DNA of 20,000 nucleotides. It comes from an uncultured virus (IMG/VR IMGVR_UViG_2757320830_000006). Taxonomy: Duplodnaviria > Heunggongvirae > Uroviricota > Caudoviricetes. Shown one piece after another: positions 2,394 to 13,720 of this stretch (positions are counted from its first letter, which is position 1; every line of letters starts with the position of its first letter). The stretch lies in the IMG/VR virus record IMGVR_UViG_2757320830_000006; one strand, 5' to 3'. The translations under genes and the position numbers were made by a program. Under the pieces are notes generated by a model. It saw nothing but the letters and a program-made list of their open reading frames with translations, had not been told where the DNA came from and did not search any database.

Positions 2394-3124
2394 CAAGAAA
2401 ATTCTGGCGATGGGCGCGAAACGAGACCCCGGACGGCTTCGGATCCGACCGCACGCTCTACCTCGAAGGGGAGATCTCCGATGAGACCTGGTACGGCGAC
2501 GAGATCACCCCACGGGCCTTCAAGGACGAGCTCAACTCCGGCAAGGGCGACATCACCCTCTGGATCAACTCGCCCGGCGGGGACGTCTTCGCAGCCGCGC
2601 AGATCTACAACATGCTCATGGACTACCCGTACGACGTGACCGTCAAGATCGACGCGCTCGCGGCATCCGCGGCATCCGTCATCGCGATGGCCGGTACAAG
2701 GGTCTGCATGAGCCCCGTCGCGATGCTCATGGTGCACAACCCCGCGACCATCGCGATCGGCGACAGCGAGGAGATGCAGAAAGCCATCGACATGCTTTCC
2801 GAGGTCAAGGAAAGCATCATGAACGCCTACGAGCTCAAGTCCGGGCTGTCCCGGAACAAGATCTCGAAGCTCATGGACGCCGAGACCTGGATGAACGCCA
2901 GGGAAGCGAAGAAGCTCGGATTCGCGGACGAGATCCTCTTCTCGGACGGCACCGAGCCAGCCGAGGAGGACGGCACGGAGATCGAGATGCTCTTCTCACG
3001 GAAGGCCGTCACCGACTCGCTTCTCTCCAGGCTCATCCCGAAACGCGCACCCGCGCAGAAAGATACGAAACCGGCCGTCAAGGCCGCCGACCTCAGGAAG
3101 CGCCTGTCGCTTCTCAGCCACTGA
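2390..3124 (+). CDS. ClpP-like (S14) prohead maturation protease
   Basis: INSPGGDVF, catalytic-Ser motif LAASAASVIAMAG, MVHNP, ETWMNAREAKKLGFAD; located between portal and capsid. Confidence 0.93.
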   Translation: MTRKFWRWARNETPDGFGSDRTLYLEGEISDETWYGDEITPRAFKDELNSGKGDITLWINSPGGDVFAAAQIYNMLMDYPYDVTVKIDALAASAASVIAMAGTRVCMSPVAMLMVHNPATIAIGDSEEMQKAIDMLSEVKESIMNAYELKSGLSRNKISKLMDAETWMNAREAKKLGFADEILFSDGTEPAEEDGTEIEMLFSRKAVTDSLLSRLIPKRAPAQKDTKPAVKAADLRKRLSLLSH

Positions 3125-3145
3125 AACGAAATGGAGGAATCCGAA

Positions 3146-4351
3146 ATGACCAAGATCATGGACCTTATGGAAAAAAGAGCCAAGGCGTGGGACGCCGCGA
3201 AGAACTTCCTCGACACCCACTCCACGGGCGGCGGCAACGTGTCCGCGGAGGACGCCGCCACCTATGACAGGATGGAGAAGGAGGTCACCGACCTCACGCA
3301 CGACATCGAGCGCCTGCAGCGTCAGGAGCAGATCGACAAGATGCTCTCCCAGCCGACCTCTGCGCCGCTTACCGGGAAACCGGGCGCAAAGGCCGAGCCG
3401 GACGACAAGCCGGGCATCGCGTCCAAGGCGTACAAGACCGCGTTCTGGGACAGCATCCGCAAGCGCAACTGGTACGACGTCAAGAACGTCCTCGAGGCCG
3501 GGACCGACGCGAACGGCGGCTACCTCGTCCCGGACGAGTACGAGAGGCAGCTCGTGCAGGCGCTGACCGACGAGAACTTCTTCCGCTCCCTCGCCCACGT
3601 CATCCAGACCGACAGCGGGACGCACACCATCCCGATCGTCGCATCCCACGGGACGGCAAGCTGGATGGAGGAGAACGGCCTGTACCCGGAATCCGACGAG
3701 ACCTTCGACCAGATCACGCTCTCCGCGTACAAGCTCGGCACCGCCATCAAGGTTTCCGAGGAGCTGATGAACGACTCCGTCTTCGACCTAGAGAGCTACA
3801 TCTCCACCGAGTTCGCACGGCGCATCGGTGCCGCCGAGGAGGAGGCGTTCCTCGTCGGCGACGGCCAGAAGAAGCCTGAGGGCGTCTTCACCAAGGTCAA
3901 GGCGACCGATGGCGCGACCACGGAGATCGCGAACACGAACCTCACCTTCGACCAGATCATGGACGTGTTCCACTCCCTGAGAAGCGTGTACCGCAACCGC
4001 GCGGTCTGGATCCTGAACGACTCAACCGTCAAGGCGCTGCGCAAGATCAAGGACGGCAACGGGAACTACATCTGGCAGCCGAGCGTGGTCGCAGGCCAGC
4101 CGGACACCATCCTCAACCGCCCGTACAGGACGAGCATCTACGCGCCGGAACTGGCGGCCGGGAACGTGCCGATCCTGTTCGGCGACTTCTCCTACTACTG
4201 GATCGCCGACCGCCAGGGACGCTCCTTCAAGCGCCTGTCCGAACTGTACGCGGCGAACGGGCAGATCGGCTTCCTCGCCTCCGAAAGGGTCGACGGCAAG
4301 CTCATCCTGCCTGAGGCCGTGCGCGGCCTTTCCGTCAAGGCATCCGCCTGA
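3146..4351 (+). CDS. Major capsid protein, HK97 fold, with N-terminal coiled-coil scaffold (delta) segment
   Basis: GGAGG at 3133-3137 favours ATG 3146 over 3131. Motifs GGYLVPDEY, VSEELMNDS, GDGQKKPEG, KDGNGNYIWQP, FGDFSYY, ERVDGKL. Confidence 0.95.
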   Translation: MTKIMDLMEKRAKAWDAAKNFLDTHSTGGGNVSAEDAATYDRMEKEVTDLTHDIERLQRQEQIDKMLSQPTSAPLTGKPGAKAEPDDKPGIASKAYKTAFWDSIRKRNWYDVKNVLEAGTDANGGYLVPDEYERQLVQALTDENFFRSLAHVIQTDSGTHTIPIVASHGTASWMEENGLYPESDETFDQITLSAYKLGTAIKVSEELMNDSVFDLESYISTEFARRIGAAEEEAFLVGDGQKKPEGVFTKVKATDGATTEIANTNLTFDQIMDVFHSLRSVYRNRAVWILNDSTVKALRKIKDGNGNYIWQPSVVAGQPDTILNRPYRTSIYAPELAAGNVPILFGDFSYYWIADRQGRSFKRLSELYAANGQIGFLASERVDGKLILPEAVRGLSVKASA

Positions 4352-6926: not shown

Positions 6927-9644
6927 ATGGCTGACAGAATCAAAGGCATCACAGTCGAGATCGGCGGCGATACGACCGGCCTCTCGAAGGCGCTGTCCGG
7001 TGTCAACAAGGAAATCCGAAGCACACAGTCGCAGCTCAAGGACGTGAACAAGCTCCTCAAGCTCGACCCGACCAACTCCGAGCTCATCGCCCAGAAGCAG
7101 AAACTCCTCTCACAGGCGGTGATGGAGACCAAGGACAAGCTCACACAGCTCAAGTCCGTGCAGGACCAGATGGACGAGGGCCTCAAAAGCGGCAGCGTCA
7201 CACAGGAGCAGTACGACGCATGGCAGCGTGAGATCATCGCGACCGAACAGGAACTCAAGAACCTCGAAAAGGAAGCGAAGAACACCGACTCCTCCATCTC
7301 CGCCACCCTGAAGGAGACCGGCTCCACGATGCAGGAGGTCGGAGGCAGGATCAGCGGAGTCGGAGAATCCCTCTCCAAGGGTGTGACCGCGCCCATCGCC
7401 GCCATAGGAGCTGCCTCCCTTGCCGCGTTCAGCGAGGTGGATTCCGGCCTTGATATCGTGACGCAGAAGACCGGCGCGTCCGGTCAGGCGCTCGAAGAGA
7501 TGCAGCAGAGCGTCAAGAACCTCGCGACGCGGATTCCTACGGATTTTGAAACTGCGGGCGCTGCCGTCGGCGAGGTCAACACGAGGTTCGGGCTGACCGG
7601 GCAGGCGCTGGAGGATCTGTCCGGCAAGTTCATCAAGTTCGCGCAGCTCAACGACACGGACGTGTCCACCTCCGTCGGCAACGTCTCCTCCGTCCTGAAC
7701 GCCTTCGGGCAGTCCACGGACGACGCGGGCGATCTCCTTGACGCGCTCAACGCCACCGGGCAGGCGACCGGGATCTCCATGGACACGCTGGCGAACGACC
7801 TGTCCCAGAACGCCGCGCAGTTCAAGGAGATGGGCCTTACCGCCCAGCAGGCCGCAGGATTCATGGGCATGGTCGAGATGTCCGGCCTTGACACTTCCAC
7901 CGCGATGGCCGGTCTCAAGAAGGCCATGAAGAACGCTGCGGACGACGGCATGACCCTCGACGACGCGCTCAAGGGCTTCTCCGACACGATGAGCTCCAAC
8001 AAATCGGACACCGAGAAGCTGCAGGCAGCCTACGACCTGTTCGGAAGCAAGGCAGGCGCAGCCTTCTACAACGCCGTGCAAAGCGGGAAACTCAACCTCG
8101 GCGACCTGTCCGGCACGCTCGGCGACTTCTCCGGCAGCGTGGAGAACACCTTCAGCGAGACGCTAGACCCGATCGACCAGTTCCAGATGACCCTGAACTC
8201 CCTGAAGGAAGTCGGGGCCGACATTGGGAACAGCCTCGCGACCGTCCTCCAGCCCGTCCTGCAGGACATGTCCGCCGCGCTCCAGAAGTTCGCGGACGTC
8301 TGGAACTCCATCCCCGGGCCCGTGCAGGAGACCATCGTTAAGATCGCCCTCATCGCCGCAGCCGTGGGGCCCGTGCTCATCGTCATCGGAAAGCTGATCA
8401 CATCGGTGGGGACGATCCTCACCGTCATCCCGAAGGTCACGACGGCGATCACCGCGATGAAAACCGTCATGACGGGACTCAATGCGACCATGGCCGCGAA
8501 CCCGATCGGGCTTATCATCACAGCCATCGGTCTTCTCGTCGCAGCGTTCCTCTACCTGTGGAATAACTGCGAGAGCTTCCGGGACTTCTGGACCGGCCTC
8601 TGGGACAACATCAAGCAGGTCGCTGTCACGGTGTTCACCGCGATCAGGGACTTCTTCACGACGATCTGGACGGCGATCGCGGGCGTTTTCACCACCGCCG
8701 TGAACGGAATCAGCACGTTCCTCTCCGGTGCGTGGAACGGCATCAGGACCGTCGTCGAAACCGTCATGAACGATATCAGCACCGTGATCCAGACCATCTG
8801 GAACGGCATCACGTCGTTCTTCACGACCATCTTCACGGCGATCCAGACCGTGGTGACGACCTACTTCAACATCTACAAGACCGTCATCACCACCGTTCTC
8901 ACCGCCATCCAGACCGTGGTCAGCACCATCTGGAACGCGATCAAAACCGTGATCACCACAGTCGTGACAGCGATCGGCACAGCCGTATCCACCGCATGGA
9001 ACGCCATAAAAACCACGACCAGCACGATATTCAACGGCGTGAAATCCGTCGTGACGTCGATCTGGAACGGAATCAAGTCTGCTGTGATGACGGTCGTGAA
9101 CGCCATGAAGAGCGGCATCACCGGCGCGTTCAACGCGATCAAGAGCACGATCTCCGGAATCCTGAACGGCATCAAGGGGACGTTCTCCTCTGTGTTCAAC
9201 GGCATCTGGAGCTTCGTTTCCGGGATCGTCGGGAAACTCAAGAGCGTCTTCAACTTCAAATGGAGCCTGCCGAAGATCAAGCTCCCGCACTTCTCCATAA
9301 CCGGCAGCTTCAGCCTGAACCCGCCGAGCATCCCGCACTTCTCCGTCTCCTGGTACAAGAAGGCGATGGAAGGCGGCATGATCCTGAAGGACGCGACGAT
9401 CTTCGGACAGTCGAATGGCACGCTCCTTGGCGGAGGCGAGGCCGGGGACGAGGCCGTCGTCGGCACAGGATCGCTTCGCTCCATGATCCGCGACGCCGTA
9501 AGCGACGTCTCCACCGGAAACAACGGCCCGCTCATCAACATCGAGACGATGAGCGTCAGGAACGACGACGACATACGCAGAATCTCCCAGCAGCTCAACA
9601 CGCTGCTCGTGGGAAGCCGCCGCGCGAAAGGAACGGTGATCTAA
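6927..9644 (+). CDS. Tail tape measure protein (905 aa)
   Basis: IKGITVEIGGDTTGL N-terminus, long Ala/Gly-rich helical body, hydrophobic segment, W/F-spaced repeats, C-terminal GGGEAGDEAVV. Confidence 0.95.
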   Translation: MADRIKGITVEIGGDTTGLSKALSGVNKEIRSTQSQLKDVNKLLKLDPTNSELIAQKQKLLSQAVMETKDKLTQLKSVQDQMDEGLKSGSVTQEQYDAWQREIIATEQELKNLEKEAKNTDSSISATLKETGSTMQEVGGRISGVGESLSKGVTAPIAAIGAASLAAFSEVDSGLDIVTQKTGASGQALEEMQQSVKNLATRIPTDFETAGAAVGEVNTRFGLTGQALEDLSGKFIKFAQLNDTDVSTSVGNVSSVLNAFGQSTDDAGDLLDALNATGQATGISMDTLANDLSQNAAQFKEMGLTAQQAAGFMGMVEMSGLDTSTAMAGLKKAMKNAADDGMTLDDALKGFSDTMSSNKSDTEKLQAAYDLFGSKAGAAFYNAVQSGKLNLGDLSGTLGDFSGSVENTFSETLDPIDQFQMTLNSLKEVGADIGNSLATVLQPVLQDMSAALQKFADVWNSIPGPVQETIVKIALIAAAVGPVLIVIGKLITSVGTILTVIPKVTTAITAMKTVMTGLNATMAANPIGLIITAIGLLVAAFLYLWNNCESFRDFWTGLWDNIKQVAVTVFTAIRDFFTTIWTAIAGVFTTAVNGISTFLSGAWNGIRTVVETVMNDISTVIQTIWNGITSFFTTIFTAIQTVVTTYFNIYKTVITTVLTAIQTVVSTIWNAIKTVITTVVTAIGTAVSTAWNAIKTTTSTIFNGVKSVVTSIWNGIKSAVMTVVNAMKSGITGAFNAIKSTISGILNGIKGTFSSVFNGIWSFVSGIVGKLKSVFNFKWSLPKIKLPHFSITGSFSLNPPSIPHFSVSWYKKAMEGGMILKDATIFGQSNGTLLGGGEAGDEAVVGTGSLRSMIRDAVSDVSTGNNGPLINIETMSVRNDDDIRRISQQLNTLLVGSRRAKGTVI
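8580..9260 (+). repeat. Degenerate ~11-aa (33-bp) repeats in the tape measure protein
   Basis: Recurring IWNGI / AWNAI / IFNGV / VFNGI units at 11/22-residue spacing; DNA repeats such as atctggaacg. Boundaries approximate. Confidence 0.8.
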
Positions 9645-11549
9645 ATGGGATTCAGATTCAACGGACGGACATCCCAGAGCTTCGGCCTCGCCACACGGCA
9701 GACGAAGGAAAACAGGATGCCGGACTTCACCAACAACACGGTCACCGTCCCGGGACGCGAGGGCGTGTTCGACTTCGGCGAGACCATCGGCGAACGCAAG
9801 ATCGAGATCTCCTGCTTCATCCCGCCGGGGAAAACGGACGAGGAGTTCCTCGCCCGGAAGGACGAGATCATCGCCTGGCTGAACCCGGACAACGGCCTCA
9901 AGGACCTCATCCTCGACAAGGAGCCCGGACGCGTGTACCGGGCGAGGCTCGAAGGCGGCTTCTCCTTCGACAAGGCCGTGCGGAACTCCTGCACCTTCGA
10001 CCTCACGTTCCTGTGCCCCGACCCGTACGCCTACGCCGAGGCGGACGAGACCTACGAGTTCACCGAGCCCGGCACCTTCACGGTGAGCCGGAGCCTCGGG
10101 AACGCGGACTCCCTCCCGGTCTACTCCCTCACGGCGGAGCTCACGAAGGAAACGAAAGCCGTCATCACCACCAACGGCAACGCGCTCGAAATAAGCGGAA
10201 GGCTCGCGAAGGACGAGATCCTCGTGATCGACTCCTCGCTCATGACGGCAATGGTTACAGACCAGGATGGCAACACGCTCCGAAACGGCCTGCCGCTCGT
10301 CAACAGCCTGGACTTCCCGGAGTTAAAGGCCGGGGAGAACACGCTCGTGATCGACGCGGACATCAGCACGACAAAGGCCGTGAAGAAGCTCAGCACGCAG
10401 GACGCGTTCACCGGGCAGGTGCCATCCTCATGGGGAGCGGACGGCCTGTGGCGGTTCAACGAATCCGAACCGGACTCATCCACGAGCCTCACGGACTCAT
10501 CCGGCAAGGGACGCAGCGCCGTGATCAGCGGCTGGAGCGGGACGACCGCAAGCCTTCCGACCGGGCGCCTAGGACGGTCCTTCCGTATGAACATCAACGA
10601 CCCGCCGACCGAGAAGACCTACCTCAAGGTGACGAACGACGGCACGATCTTCCAGACGTTCGGCGAGACGATCGCCGTCGGCGGATGGTTCATGCCGACC
10701 ACCTACTCGGTCGGGAACACGTTCTGCCCGCTTTTCAACACGCGCTACGGCCCGGGCCAGCCGATCCTGTACCTGTCGCTCCTGTCCGGGAAACCGAGGA
10801 TCATGCTCTACGATTCGACCGGCACGCTGATCCTCGACAAGTCCGTGACGCCGTCCTTCACGTTGGAGAACGCCGCCTGGTATTTCATCGCCTGCCTCAT
10901 CAAGCCGGTTGCCAAGACCGCACAGTACATCCTCGGCAGCCGGAGCACCGGCGCGGTCTGGGAATCCGACGTCCTCGGCTTCACCGGGACGCTCAACGCG
11001 TCCTGCACGGCGGACCTCGTCTGGGGCATGCACGCCGACTCCTACTGGTACGCGGGGAACTTCGACGACTGGTTCCTCGACTGCGACTCCGACCTCACCG
11101 TGGACGATATCTCCCTGTGGTTCAGGGAATCCCTGTCCGCGAACGCCGCCGACTCCGACGCCATCGTGGACGGGCTCACGACAGAAGACGCCGTGACCCT
11201 GAAAGCCACGAGCGGCGCGTACCCATCGTCCGGGACGCTCACCACGGCGGCCGTCACCTACGGGATCGAAGGCACCTGCCTTGTCTCCGTGGACGCGGAC
11301 CTGCCGGACGGGACCGGGATCGGCGTCGAGACCTCGACATCGGACGACCTCATGGCGTGGAGCGACTGGGCGGCGACCGGGGATGACGGAAGCGTCAAGT
11401 CCGCGGCGGGACAGTACATCCGCTTCCGGCTCACGCTCGCGACGACCGACACATCCACGACGCCGACCCTCAGAAGCATCAGCCTCTCCGTGCCGGGGGA
11501 ATCGGCGTTCAGGAAACTCGTCATCAACGCGCACAGCAGATGGAGGTGA
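9645..11549 (+). CDS. dit: Distal tail protein (Dit) with an inserted LamG/ConA-like lectin module
   Basis: Dit N-terminus (FRFNGRTSQSFGL..VPGREG..FLCPDPYAY), galectin-domain pattern (LVIDS..FPELKAGENTLVI) and terminal ..SRWR. The insert has GLWRFNE..DSSGKGRSA..WYFIAC..GNFDDW typical of LamG-like domains. Confidence 0.85.
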   Translation: MGFRFNGRTSQSFGLATRQTKENRMPDFTNNTVTVPGREGVFDFGETIGERKIEISCFIPPGKTDEEFLARKDEIIAWLNPDNGLKDLILDKEPGRVYRARLEGGFSFDKAVRNSCTFDLTFLCPDPYAYAEADETYEFTEPGTFTVSRSLGNADSLPVYSLTAELTKETKAVITTNGNALEISGRLAKDEILVIDSSLMTAMVTDQDGNTLRNGLPLVNSLDFPELKAGENTLVIDADISTTKAVKKLSTQDAFTGQVPSSWGADGLWRFNESEPDSSTSLTDSSGKGRSAVISGWSGTTASLPTGRLGRSFRMNINDPPTEKTYLKVTNDGTIFQTFGETIAVGGWFMPTTYSVGNTFCPLFNTRYGPGQPILYLSLLSGKPRIMLYDSTGTLILDKSVTPSFTLENAAWYFIACLIKPVAKTAQYILGSRSTGAVWESDVLGFTGTLNASCTADLVWGMHADSYWYAGNFDDWFLDCDSDLTVDDISLWFRESLSANAADSDAIVDGLTTEDAVTLKATSGAYPSSGTLTTAAVTYGIEGTCLVSVDADLPDGTGIGVETSTSDDLMAWSDWAATGDDGSVKSAAGQYIRFRLTLATTDTSTTPTLRSISLSVPGESAFRKLVINAHSRWR

Positions 11550-11554
11550 CAGGA

Positions 11555-12928
11555 ATGTCAGACCAGACAAGCCTTGTCGTCATGGACAAGGACGACAACC
11601 CGGAGGCCGTGCTCGAAAACGCCTACGACATCATCGCCACCGGCGAGATCAACGGCATCGACACGCTCGAATTCAACCTCCCGTTCCGCGACGGCAAACG
11701 GCGGCATCTCGAAAACGAAAAACAGATCTCCGTCGGCGGCGACACCTACCGCATCCGCACGATCACGGACGAGAAGAACGAGCAGGGTACCGCCATCACC
11801 TCCGTGTACGCCGAGGCCACGTTCTACGACCTCGGGTTCTCCGTCAAGAAAACGGAGCAGACCTTCAACGCGGACACGGCGGACGTCCCGATGGCCTACG
11901 CGCTGCAGGACACCGGCTGGGCGCTCGGGACCGTCAACATCCGCACGAAGCGCACCTGGACATCCACGGAGAAAAACGCCCTCGCGATCCTCCGGAAGGT
12001 GCAGGACCTCCACGGAGGCGACCTCATCTTCGACAACAAAAACAGGACCGTGAGCCTTCTGACCTTCAGCGGCACGGACTCCGGCGCGCTCTTCTGCTAC
12101 AGGAAGAACATGAAGTCCATCAAGCGCGTCATCGACACGCAGAGCCTCATCACACGGCTCTACGCCTACGGCAAGGACGGCATGACCTTCGCGTCCATCA
12201 ACGACGGCAAGGAGTACGTCGAGGACACCACGTACACGGACGAGATCCGCATATCCACGCTCGACTGCTCGAACTTCACGAACCCGTACCAGATGCTGGA
12301 GTACGCCAACATGCGCCTCGCCGACTACGCAAGCCCGCGCATCTCCTACGTCCTGAACGCGATGGACCTCTCCGTCCTCACCGGCTACGGGCACGAGACA
12401 TGGAAGCTCGGCGACATCGTGACCGTGAAGGACGACGAGCTGGACCTTTCCATCAAGACAAGGATCGTGCGCCGCGAATACAACCTCCGCGAACCGTGGA
12501 ACACCGTCCTCGAACTGTCGACCACCCTCCGGGAGCTCGGCGACTCCTCCTCACAGTGGGATGCCGCCGCCGACACGCTAGCCGGTGCGAACCTCGTCGA
12601 CAGCCAGGAGATGAAGGACCTTGTCCCGTTCAACCATCTGAGAAACTCAAGAGCCGACTCAGGATTTTCTTACTGGGAGAATTCCGGATTCGAGGTGGAT
12701 ACGGAAAACGGCGTCTCCGGAACCGCATCCTTCAAATGCGAAGGAGCCCTCGTCACCACGAAAAGCCTGACGCAGACCGTGATCCCGGCAAACCGGGACA
12801 GTTACACCTTCTCCTGCCAGATCGCGTCGGACGACCTCACGATGGGCGACAATGGGCAGGTCGGCGTGGAGGTCACCTTTGAATACGAGGACGGGACGAC
12901 GGAGACACGGTTCATCGACCTGATGTAA
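11555..12928 (+). CDS. Tail-associated hub/spike protein (Tal, prophage-endopeptidase-like family) ending in a partial CBM-like domain
   Basis: GGAGGT at 11542 supports ATG 11555. EINGIDTLEF, YRKNMKSIKR..ITRLYAYGKDG, KLGDIVTVKD..RIVRREY; follows Dit. Confidence 0.85.
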   Translation: MSDQTSLVVMDKDDNPEAVLENAYDIIATGEINGIDTLEFNLPFRDGKRRHLENEKQISVGGDTYRIRTITDEKNEQGTAITSVYAEATFYDLGFSVKKTEQTFNADTADVPMAYALQDTGWALGTVNIRTKRTWTSTEKNALAILRKVQDLHGGDLIFDNKNRTVSLLTFSGTDSGALFCYRKNMKSIKRVIDTQSLITRLYAYGKDGMTFASINDGKEYVEDTTYTDEIRISTLDCSNFTNPYQMLEYANMRLADYASPRISYVLNAMDLSVLTGYGHETWKLGDIVTVKDDELDLSIKTRIVRREYNLREPWNTVLELSTTLRELGDSSSQWDAAADTLAGANLVDSQEMKDLVPFNHLRNSRADSGFSYWENSGFEVDTENGVSGTASFKCEGALVTTKSLTQTVIPANRDSYTFSCQIASDDLTMGDNGQVGVEVTFEYEDGTTETRFIDLM

Positions 12929-12941
12929 AGGAGGAACCCAT

Positions 12942-13136
12942 ATGGCTTCGTTTTCACATGTGGCGCAGGCGGTCTCCCCGCAGAACGGGCGCGTCAGCAA
13001 AATGCGGATCCGCATCTGCGTGACCGACTGCACCGGAACCATTCACATCACGGACATGCTCCTTCAGGGCGGCTCCATCGCGACCGGCTGGGTCGGGCAC
13101 GTCAGTGAGATCAAATGGACTGAGGACGGTGAGTGA
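12942..13136 (+). CDS. 64-aa tail-tip protein resembling the C-terminal strands of a CBM-like jelly roll
   Basis: Strong RBS AAGGAGG at 12928-12934. DCTGT..TDMLLQGGSIATGW; paralogous to the N-terminus of the next gene. Confidence 0.8.
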   Translation: MASFSHVAQAVSPQNGRVSKMRIRICVTDCTGTIHITDMLLQGGSIATGWVGHVSEIKWTEDGE

Positions 13137-13138
13137 TC

Positions 13139-13720
13139 ATGCCGGTATTCACAAGGTTCACGGAAACCATCCGGAAAAAGGAAAAGAAACGCATCGTCAG
13201 CGTAACCCTGAAACCGCAGGTGAAGGACTGCACGGGAACGGTCTGGTTCACGGACCTCATACTGCAGGAAGGAGACCGCCTCTCCGGATACGTCATCAAC
13301 ACCGAAACGCTCCAGAAGACATACGCGACCGGGGACGAATACGCGGTCTCCGGGAAACGTTTCTACAACGGCATCGTCCGCGGAAGCATGACCTGCGTCA
13401 TCTTCAACCTCGGCAAGACCACCGTCGGGCTCGACTGGAAGATTACGCCCAATCAAAACATGAAGGCCGGAAGCATCTCCCTCGCACTCGGGGCGGGCGC
13501 GCACAAGGCTACCTTCACCCATGCTGCCAGCGCAGGTAACGAACTGTCCCTGCTTGCGTCGACAAGGGAGTGCCTGAAAAACGGCTCGCCCACCCCGAAG
13601 GACGGGTTCTTCCAGTATTCCGCCGCCGGGGACAGCAAACACCCTGTGACGGTCGGGGACAAGAAGTCAGCGCGGCTCTACGTGGAGTTCCGGGAAATGG
13701 AGGACGGTGATCTGATATGA
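13139..13720 (+). CDS. Tail-tip protein: half-CBM segment plus probable Dit-galectin-like domain (alternative start GTG 13133)
   Basis: Coupled to both neighbours. N-terminal DCTGTVWFTDLILQEG; C-terminal part has a Dit-C-like pattern (FNLG..WKITP..GNELSL..LKNG..FF..AGD..LYVEFRE). The fold call is inference. Confidence 0.75.
   Translation: MPVFTRFTETIRKKEKKRIVSVTLKPQVKDCTGTVWFTDLILQEGDRLSGYVINTETLQKTYATGDEYAVSGKRFYNGIVRGSMTCVIFNLGKTTVGLDWKITPNQNMKAGSISLALGAGAHKATFTHAASAGNELSLLASTRECLKNGSPTPKDGFFQYSAAGDSKHPVTVGDKKSARLYVEFREMEDGDLI

Follow-up and report, generated by a model that had tools for sequence, protein, structure and literature searches.

We analysed a window of 20,000 nucleotides (nt) from an uncultured virus (IMG/VR IMGVR_UViG_2757320830_000006; Caudoviricetes), part of a 25.8-kb viral record with an estimated completeness of ~54%. 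Its late region lies on the + strand in a typical Gram-positive siphophage arrangement, and within it the gene for the tail-tip protein Tal is followed by two small genes, ORF64 and ORF193, encoding 64 and 193 amino acids (aa; Table 1). An earlier note, made from the letters of this stretch alone, had proposed that Tal ends in half of a jelly-roll domain and that the products of the two next genes, similar at their N-termini, could each complete it in trans; that interpretation as a whole is partly supported by the results below. The junction reads as the note had it. Tal ends ...FNHLRNSRAD...EVTFEYEDGTTETRFIDLM followed by TAA (12926-12928), the ribosome-binding site AAGGAGG (12928-12934) and the ORF64 ATG (12942) are both present, and the ORF64 frame is shut upstream by a TGA (12921-12923), so Tal and ORF64 cannot be fused by a single indel or simple frameshift. 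Recounted on the translations, the two similar segments (13020-13094 and 13220-13294) share 13 of 25 residues. The start of ORF193 is most likely the ATG at 13139, 2 nt past the ORF64 stop, because its homologues start MP.FTRF.

Tal scored above the cut-offs of both PF06605 (252.4 bits versus 31.3; E = 6.6e-75) and PF18994 (55.9 bits versus 23.6; E = 5e-15), and it corresponds to positions 397-841 of the 841 in phrog_3475, stopping at the profile end. Judged by profile matches, its C-terminal segment (Tal-C) resembles a CBM_4_9 domain cut off after the first ~70%. Five of 19 diverse Tal-C segments matched PF02018 (CBM_4_9), each only at profile positions 2/3-94/97 of 136, and all five matches finished at the protein C-terminus. 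The segment from phage Montesquieu passed the family cut-off (26.2 bits versus 25.9; E = 1.2e-5), the other four were sub-threshold, and 6 of the 76 members of Tal-C alignment A4 matched; no matching Tal-C held a complete CBM_4_9 domain (profile ~1-136) in one chain. The Pfam match backs the start of the 'typical' CBM motif pair that the earlier note had given; the end motif has no such backing.

The note had also conceded that its proposal would fail if the Tal C-terminus folded as a complete domain alone. Modelled by AlphaFold2 (AF2) from a 76-sequence alignment of three lineages, Tal-C alone gave no confident domain, with a mean predicted local distance difference test score (pLDDT) of 68 and values below 50 at residues 1-14 and 19-25 of the 113-residue fragment. 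Foldseek found no fold match for this model in the PDB (best E = 2.1), and a PDB sequence search with Tal alone found nothing. In an all-against-all VIA-align comparison the top rows were CBM16, CBM61, CBM22 and CBM35 chains, matched only over the first ~100 of their 126-159 residues and with low Z scores (at most 4.6), a consistent lead short of proof.

The homology between ORF64 and ORF193 reaches beyond the 25-residue segment and spans all ~63 residues of ORF64. Across families, ORF64 matched phrog_12827, the family of ORF193 (E = 6.9e-11), and ORF193 matched phrog_3473, the family of ORF64 (E = 2.3e-5), so the paralogy of the two modules exceeds chance; a hidden Markov model (HMM) of the cap module likewise matched the ORF193 N-terminus (E = 3e-28). 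Both proteins matched their own families end to end, ORF64 at positions 2-64 of 66 in phrog_3473 (a 66-aa phage protein of unknown function) and ORF193 at positions 5-190 of 194 in phrog_12827 (a 194-aa 'tail protein'). All eight small module proteins tested from other lineages also matched phrog_3473. ORF64 had 138 homologues, mostly of 64 aa, with a strongly conserved C-terminal tail (GHVSEI.WT.DG), and its family cluster in the ESM Atlas holds 3,162 members. In the AF2 model of ORF193 alone, pLDDT was below 50 over residues 1-94. PDB sequence searches returned nothing for ORF64 and only chance rows for ORF193 (E at least 0.19). Designed 'Pizza' propeller repeats, which the PDB profile search raised as module relatives, were set aside as chance matches.

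The split between the two parts is conserved. A tblastn search of Tal and ORF64 against 50,697 phage records found the Tal and ORF64 genes next to each other in phages of Oscillospiraceae, Acutalibacteraceae, Anaerosphaera, Streptococcus and Erysipelothrix, and likewise in Geobacillus, Bacillus, Weizmannia, Glutamicibacter and Microbacterium phages; Microbacterium alone accounted for 161 phage records with the module. The hosts thus span Bacillota and Actinomycetota, Clostridia included. In all seven annotated regions in which the small gene comes directly after Tal, it encoded 61-74 aa and was followed by a 190-302-aa 'tail protein' and then by a 700-1,000-aa minor tail protein or glycosidase. 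Phage Montesquieu has a variant gene order, in which both module-bearing proteins are ~157 aa.

We scanned the stop-to-stop frames of 162 loci with HMMs of Tal-C and of the module. Tal-C was found in 160 (the two without it are cut off upstream) and the module in 161 (the exception, L115, is a deletion remnant). Wherever both parts occurred, they lay in different open frames (159/159 loci; 26 clusters at 88% Tal-C identity, the loci being redundant). Of these 159 pairs, 87 had a relative frame of +1, 46 of +2 and 26 of 0. Most spacers (131 loci) measured 9-18 nt; in 23 loci the parts overlapped or lay within 1 nt of each other, and in 5 the gap was 46-77 nt. The stop and restart that the earlier note had proposed to look for in homologous prophages is conserved: all 159 loci have an equivalent junction, and in the junctions of loci L001-L084 a GGAGG-type site lies directly past the stop, followed by ATG or GTG. 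In 155 of the 159, the Tal terminus fell 0 or -1 residue from the end of the model; the Tal proteins of TP-84, PK2.1 and BpsM-61 carry an additional 17-20-residue tail. Because all 159 loci keep the parts in separate open frames, the comparison supports the note's view of the split as deliberate, and as ancient rather than a lesion.

A wider search told the same about fusion. Among 120 listed of 141 close Tal-C relatives, 116 shared the end residue, three had 7 extra residues and one had 24, and none of the 120 contained an ORF64-like segment. Searched against 1.84 billion representatives, the ORF64 profile gave 206 matches, of which the best 150 were ~60-66-aa proteins, fragments, or 100-217-aa proteins matching at the N-terminus. 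No true Tal-module fusion was present among these 150 (the exception P0482 was left uninspected), so the mostly fused homologues that the note had named as grounds for abandoning its proposal did not appear. The other exceptions comprised three sequences of a repetitive kind, a number of short fragments that are chimeric or frameshifted (P0368 and P0469 among them) and one long protein, P0488.

The bacterial protein P0488 (1,171 aa) contains four tandem copies of a 160-residue repeat, each matched once by the module profile (E = 7.7e-7 library-wide). By hhalign, the module aligned to repeat positions 116-157, the last 40-42 residues (93%, E = 3e-7), and Tal-C was placed colinearly with it at positions 2-112, a placement that is not significant (E = 0.14). 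The products of two genes thus map to non-overlapping, complementary parts of a single-chain unit, taking ~100 and ~42 residues of its 136-160. The alignment supports the reading that the module corresponds to the last three strands of the complete repeat. Since Pfam does not call the repeat CBM_4_9, P0488 serves only as a complete single-chain comparator.

Several further sequences touch on the module or the junction. In the L115 prophage remnant, a deletion (about 1780-1911) joins the end of Tal to the middle of the GH18 gene, and both module genes are gone. The metagenomic sequence P0368 (163 aa) runs from a Tal N-terminus and linker straight into the module, starting at about module residue 11 with no half-domain in between, and is probably a deletion or assembly chimera. 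We considered phrog_22322, whose profile runs 66 positions past Tal-C, as a fused form; none of nine small modules (ORF64 of the window and eight from other lineages) matched it, so its extension is not module-like at HMMER sensitivity. Four of nine small modules (window 12942-13133, L002, L003 and L088) weakly matched phrog_38552 at its C-terminus (positions ~365-415 of 430, E = 0.018-0.16), which may be a phage protein carrying the complete domain in one chain. The module of ORF193 (13139-13327) and its relatives also pointed weakly to the N-terminus of Gp58 (PF07902 positions 21-63 of 594): 3 of 44 modules matched at E = 0.06-0.2, and a gp58-like cluster in the ESM Atlas scored 0.79. Gp58 (PF07902) had no match in the phage's own record, and tblastn returned only the same family (12 records); going by these weak pointers, some larger tail proteins of other phages might begin with this plug. 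Some loci (L120, L126, L127, L130 and L131) sit in metagenome-assembled genomes (MAGs) labelled Burkholderiales, Pseudomonadota, Porticoccaceae, Caldisericia or Spirochaetes, where a Bacillota-type tail module likely reflects mis-binned contigs.

Two module-bearing genes were present in 155 of the 159 loci, and three of the four exceptions are truncated loci. The Tal-C HMM matched Tal alone in the loci, in 158 cases at the C-terminus and in 3 with a short tail beyond; it found no second Tal-C-like socket in the 25.8-kb record (one match, Tal) or in other genes of the loci. Across 16 lineages, the small modules resembled one another more (0.384) than they resembled the modules of the long proteins (0.248), which indicates an old duplication. 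Pairs from the same phage were slightly more similar (0.294) than pairs from different phages (0.248), and none of 10,000 permutations reached 0.294, the relatedness of loci being ignored. As far as these comparisons go, it fits that both plugs would serve the Tal socket, whether in place of each other or one after the other; a second socket that escapes recognition is possible. One locus, L121 (an Oscillospiraceae MAG), has two 64-aa module genes ~1 kb apart (1842-2036 and 2998-3192) rather than a small and a long one.

The extra domain that the earlier note had credited to ORF193 is there, and by structural superposition it is Dit-type and galectin-like. VIA-align superposed residues 79-189 on residues 143-253 of SPP1 Dit (2x8k_A) with Z = 8.7 and a root-mean-square deviation of 2.2 over 98 aligned residues; other Dit galectin matches were 9j1k_K (Z = 8.3), 6v8i_AC (Z = 7.6) and 2wzp_P (Z = 6.6). 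In the AF2 model, ten-residue blocks had pLDDT values of 56 for residues 91-100, 71-88 for residues 101-160 and 53-72 for residues 161-190. ORF193 matched no Pfam family at E <=0.1 and fell short of PF22768 (SPP1_Dit) by sequence; its distant relative P0501 scored 21.1 bits against PF22768 (cut-off 25). The C-terminal fold of ORF193 is thus like the galectin-like domain of Dit in SPP1 (gp19.1, 2x8k), the 80alpha baseplate (6v8i) and the monocin tip (9j1k). Unlike Dit, it has no N-terminal belt (ring) domain and carries the 63-residue module in its place. Without a belt it cannot form a Dit ring and would need another mode of docking.

Table 1 Features of the tail-tip region of the window (coordinates are those of the window)
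Feature	Coordinates	Strand	Support
Tape measure protein	6927-9644	+	
Dit, 634 aa, with a C-terminal ~360-aa extension	9645..11549	+	PF05709 E 2.9e-18; phrog_33 Dit aa 3-238
Tal, tail-tip protein, 462 aa	11540..12928	+	PF18994, PF06605, phrog_3475
Tal-C, incomplete CBM_4_9-like half-domain, about residues 361-462 (proposed socket)	12620..12925	+	
Gene junction	12921..12941	+	TGA 12921-12923, Tal TAA 12926-12928, AAGGAGG 12928-12934
ORF64, stand-alone 64-aa plug module (proposed)	12942..13136	+	phrog_3473 E 1e-25
ORF193, plug module (proposed) and galectin-like domain	13139..13720	+	phrog_12827 E 3.3e-67
Proposed plug module of ORF193, residues 1-63, paralogue of the entire ORF64	13139..13327	+	phrog_3473 E 2.5e-6
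Dit-type galectin-like domain of ORF193, residues 79-189	13373..13705	+	VIA-align
GH18-containing minor tail protein, 824 aa	13717..16191	+	PF00704 E 3.6e-13; phrog_3432 E 0
Holin, then GH25/CW_7/LysM endolysin, downstream of the GH18 gene		+	

The start of the GH18 gene overlaps the ORF193 stop (ATGA). Short or overlapping junctions chain Tal, ORF64, ORF193 and the GH18 gene, with 13 nt, 2 nt and the ATGA overlap between successive genes (12926-12944, 13134-13141 and 13717-13720), and these tight junctions suggest translational coupling of the four proteins. The GH18 protein scored 50.3 bits against PF00704 (cut-off 29.6) over aa 57-292, at profile positions 52-280 of 317. Its C-terminal residues (..GIAIWSLGQEDLRLW..) resemble the closing part of a GH18 barrel; should they be that, and on a reading of the sequence alone, the catalytic domain would be interrupted by an insertion of ~480 aa. 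Upstream, the Dit extension (aa 249-614) matched the N part of phrog_3475. The surroundings of this ~360-aa module vary from phage to phage: in the window (9645-11549) it forms the C-terminal part of Dit, in NatCom_35866, Knox and TP-84 it is joined to the Tal N-terminus, and in GBK2 it is a gene of its own (GBK2_16). The comparison covers 2035-4491 of L001 and 1948-3006 of L002.

Virion data come from phage TP-84. The accessible parts of PMC5889276 report that mass spectrometry of gel bands detected TP84_23 (homologous to Tal) and TP84_25 (homologous to ORF193) in virions, and that TP84_25 was annotated by HHpred as a distal tail protein (Dit-like). The GH18 homologue TP84_26 is described, in the available text of PMC10131341, as a capsule depolymerase found in soluble form and as a faint virion band. 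In the literature searched, no virion proteome besides that of TP-84 covered the small protein.

We consider it reasonably probable that a conserved CBM-type domain is spread over separate genes, with a portable 63-residue module completing it in trans. The C-terminal ~100 residues of Tal would supply only the first ~70% of a CBM_4_9-type jelly roll, and the opening stretch of each of the two genes that follow would supply the three final strands that Tal lacks. With closely coupled translation, the module strands would insert into the Tal half-domain and form one beta-sandwich over two chains. ORF64 would then be a bare cap, and ORF193 would use the same plug to place its Dit-type galectin-like domain at the tail tip, where it would probably be a platform on which other proteins of the tip, for instance the GH18 depolymerase-like protein, could sit. 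The results establish the conserved split, the homology of each half, the paralogy of the two modules and the fold of the C-terminal domain of ORF193. We infer the binding itself, which partner occupies the Tal sockets and in what ratio, as well as the carriage of the GH18 enzyme by ORF193.

Several results weigh against this division of a CBM-type domain, and a plainer account competes with it. There, Tal-C would be an autonomous beta domain of small size whose likeness to the start of a CBM is only superficial, and ORF64 and ORF193 would be baseplate subunits of the ordinary sort, their shared N-terminal module folding or oligomerising alone and docking elsewhere, for example on Dit or the Tal body, by surface contacts. 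In favour of this account, the window's own Tal-C did not match PF02018 even at E <=10, none of the 44 module sequences matched that family, and the fold matches of the Tal-C model are low. Also against the divided domain, PDB profile searches gave nothing significant with Tal-C (best E = 0.25) or with the module (best E = 0.13), the placement of Tal-C on the P0488 repeat lacks significance, and the repeat itself is not called CBM_4_9. The low pLDDT of both halves may stem from shallow alignments rather than from an incomplete fold. It is puzzling that a single kind of socket should have two conserved plugs, the permutation test that pairs them within phages takes no account of kinship among loci, and in the accessible parts of PMC5889276 the 69-aa ORF64 homologue TP84_24, like TP84_26, is given as 'ND' in TP-84 virions; that study, being gel-based, could miss a 7.9-kDa protein. 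Against autonomous domains, however, stand PF02018 matches that always stop at position ~96 of 136, exactly where Tal ends, the alignment of the module to the complementary end of a single-chain repeat, genes that are always adjacent and tightly spaced, and the failure of either part to fold confidently alone. On balance we think the plainer account rather unlikely.

Two other explanations were weighed. If the split were a lesion or sequencing error, or were bridged by programmed frameshifting or readthrough to give a fused Tal-ORF64, one might point to the 26 of 159 loci in which both genes share a frame with one stop between them. All three relative frames occur, however, and in the window the frames of Tal and ORF64 are both closed before the ATG; the GGAGG-type sites and start codons of the L001-L084 junctions, the same boundary in every one of the 159 loci and the shared end residue in 116 of the 120 close relatives listed (of 141) point the same way. 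This conserved boundary refutes lesion or recoding as a general explanation, and we give it almost no credence. The remaining explanation grants the divided domain and adds a sequence of events: ORF64 would be a chaperone-like cap that holds the Tal half-domain in its folded state during assembly, until the ORF193 plug displaces it in the manner of donor-strand exchange in pili, and only ORF193 would stay in the virion. It would account for ORF64 being the module alone and ORF193 the module plus a functional domain, for the single type of socket found, and for TP-84 virions that, as far as the accessible report goes, contain the ORF193 homologue with the ORF64 homologue undetected. That non-detection of a 7.9-kDa protein rests on gel bands in the same report, however, a mere placeholder would not need the conserved C-terminal tail of ORF64, and in Montesquieu both module-bearing proteins are ~157 aa; we find such an exchange improbable. 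We are equally doubtful of its broader form, in which the half-CBM of Tal would be a general socket and the module a portable plug across Bacillota and Actinomycetota siphophages, the 64-aa placeholder being exchanged for the galectin-domain protein and perhaps, elsewhere, for Gp58-type proteins.

If the divided, trans-completed domain is real, a very widespread siphophage tail module would have, at the end that recognises the host, a natural docking device built from a split domain. Two small genes that are strictly conserved and lack annotation would then have an explanation. The arrangement would also hint at how accessory proteins bearing depolymerases become attached, and protein engineering would gain a compact natural plug-and-socket pair. 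The accessible parts of the literature searched, baseplate cryo-electron microscopy papers included, hold no description of the split.

Chaperone-usher pili (Fim/Pap) use donor-strand complementation and exchange, in which an incomplete beta-sandwich is completed by a strand of another chain. As in Fim/Pap, the complementing segment would here be carried both by a small dedicated protein and by a 'next subunit', to judge from the paralogous modules. In contrast to Fim/Pap, three strands (~40 residues) of a CBM-type jelly roll would be donated, not one strand of an Ig fold, and the proteins are those of a phage tail tip. That a domain lacks core strands encoded elsewhere, the hallmark of donor-strand systems, is supported here at the level of sequence, with weak fold evidence (Z at most 4.6). 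If exchange did occur, it would be a viral counterpart of donor-strand exchange, governing the loading of accessory proteins or depolymerases. Compared with Pfam CBM_4_9 domains, homologues of Tal-C match profile positions 2-97, whereas the last ~40 positions are absent from Tal in every lineage and the window's copy lies below detection. Another point of comparison is the 'evolved' Tal and Dit of Gram-positive siphophages, in which, according to the available portions of PMC7533335 and PMC7291167, CBMs are embedded within Dit and Tal themselves. The locus described here likewise has a CBM-like domain on the Dit-Tal core of the adhesion device; unlike those described in the available portions, its domain boundary coincides with a gene boundary, and two paralogous modules would complete it.

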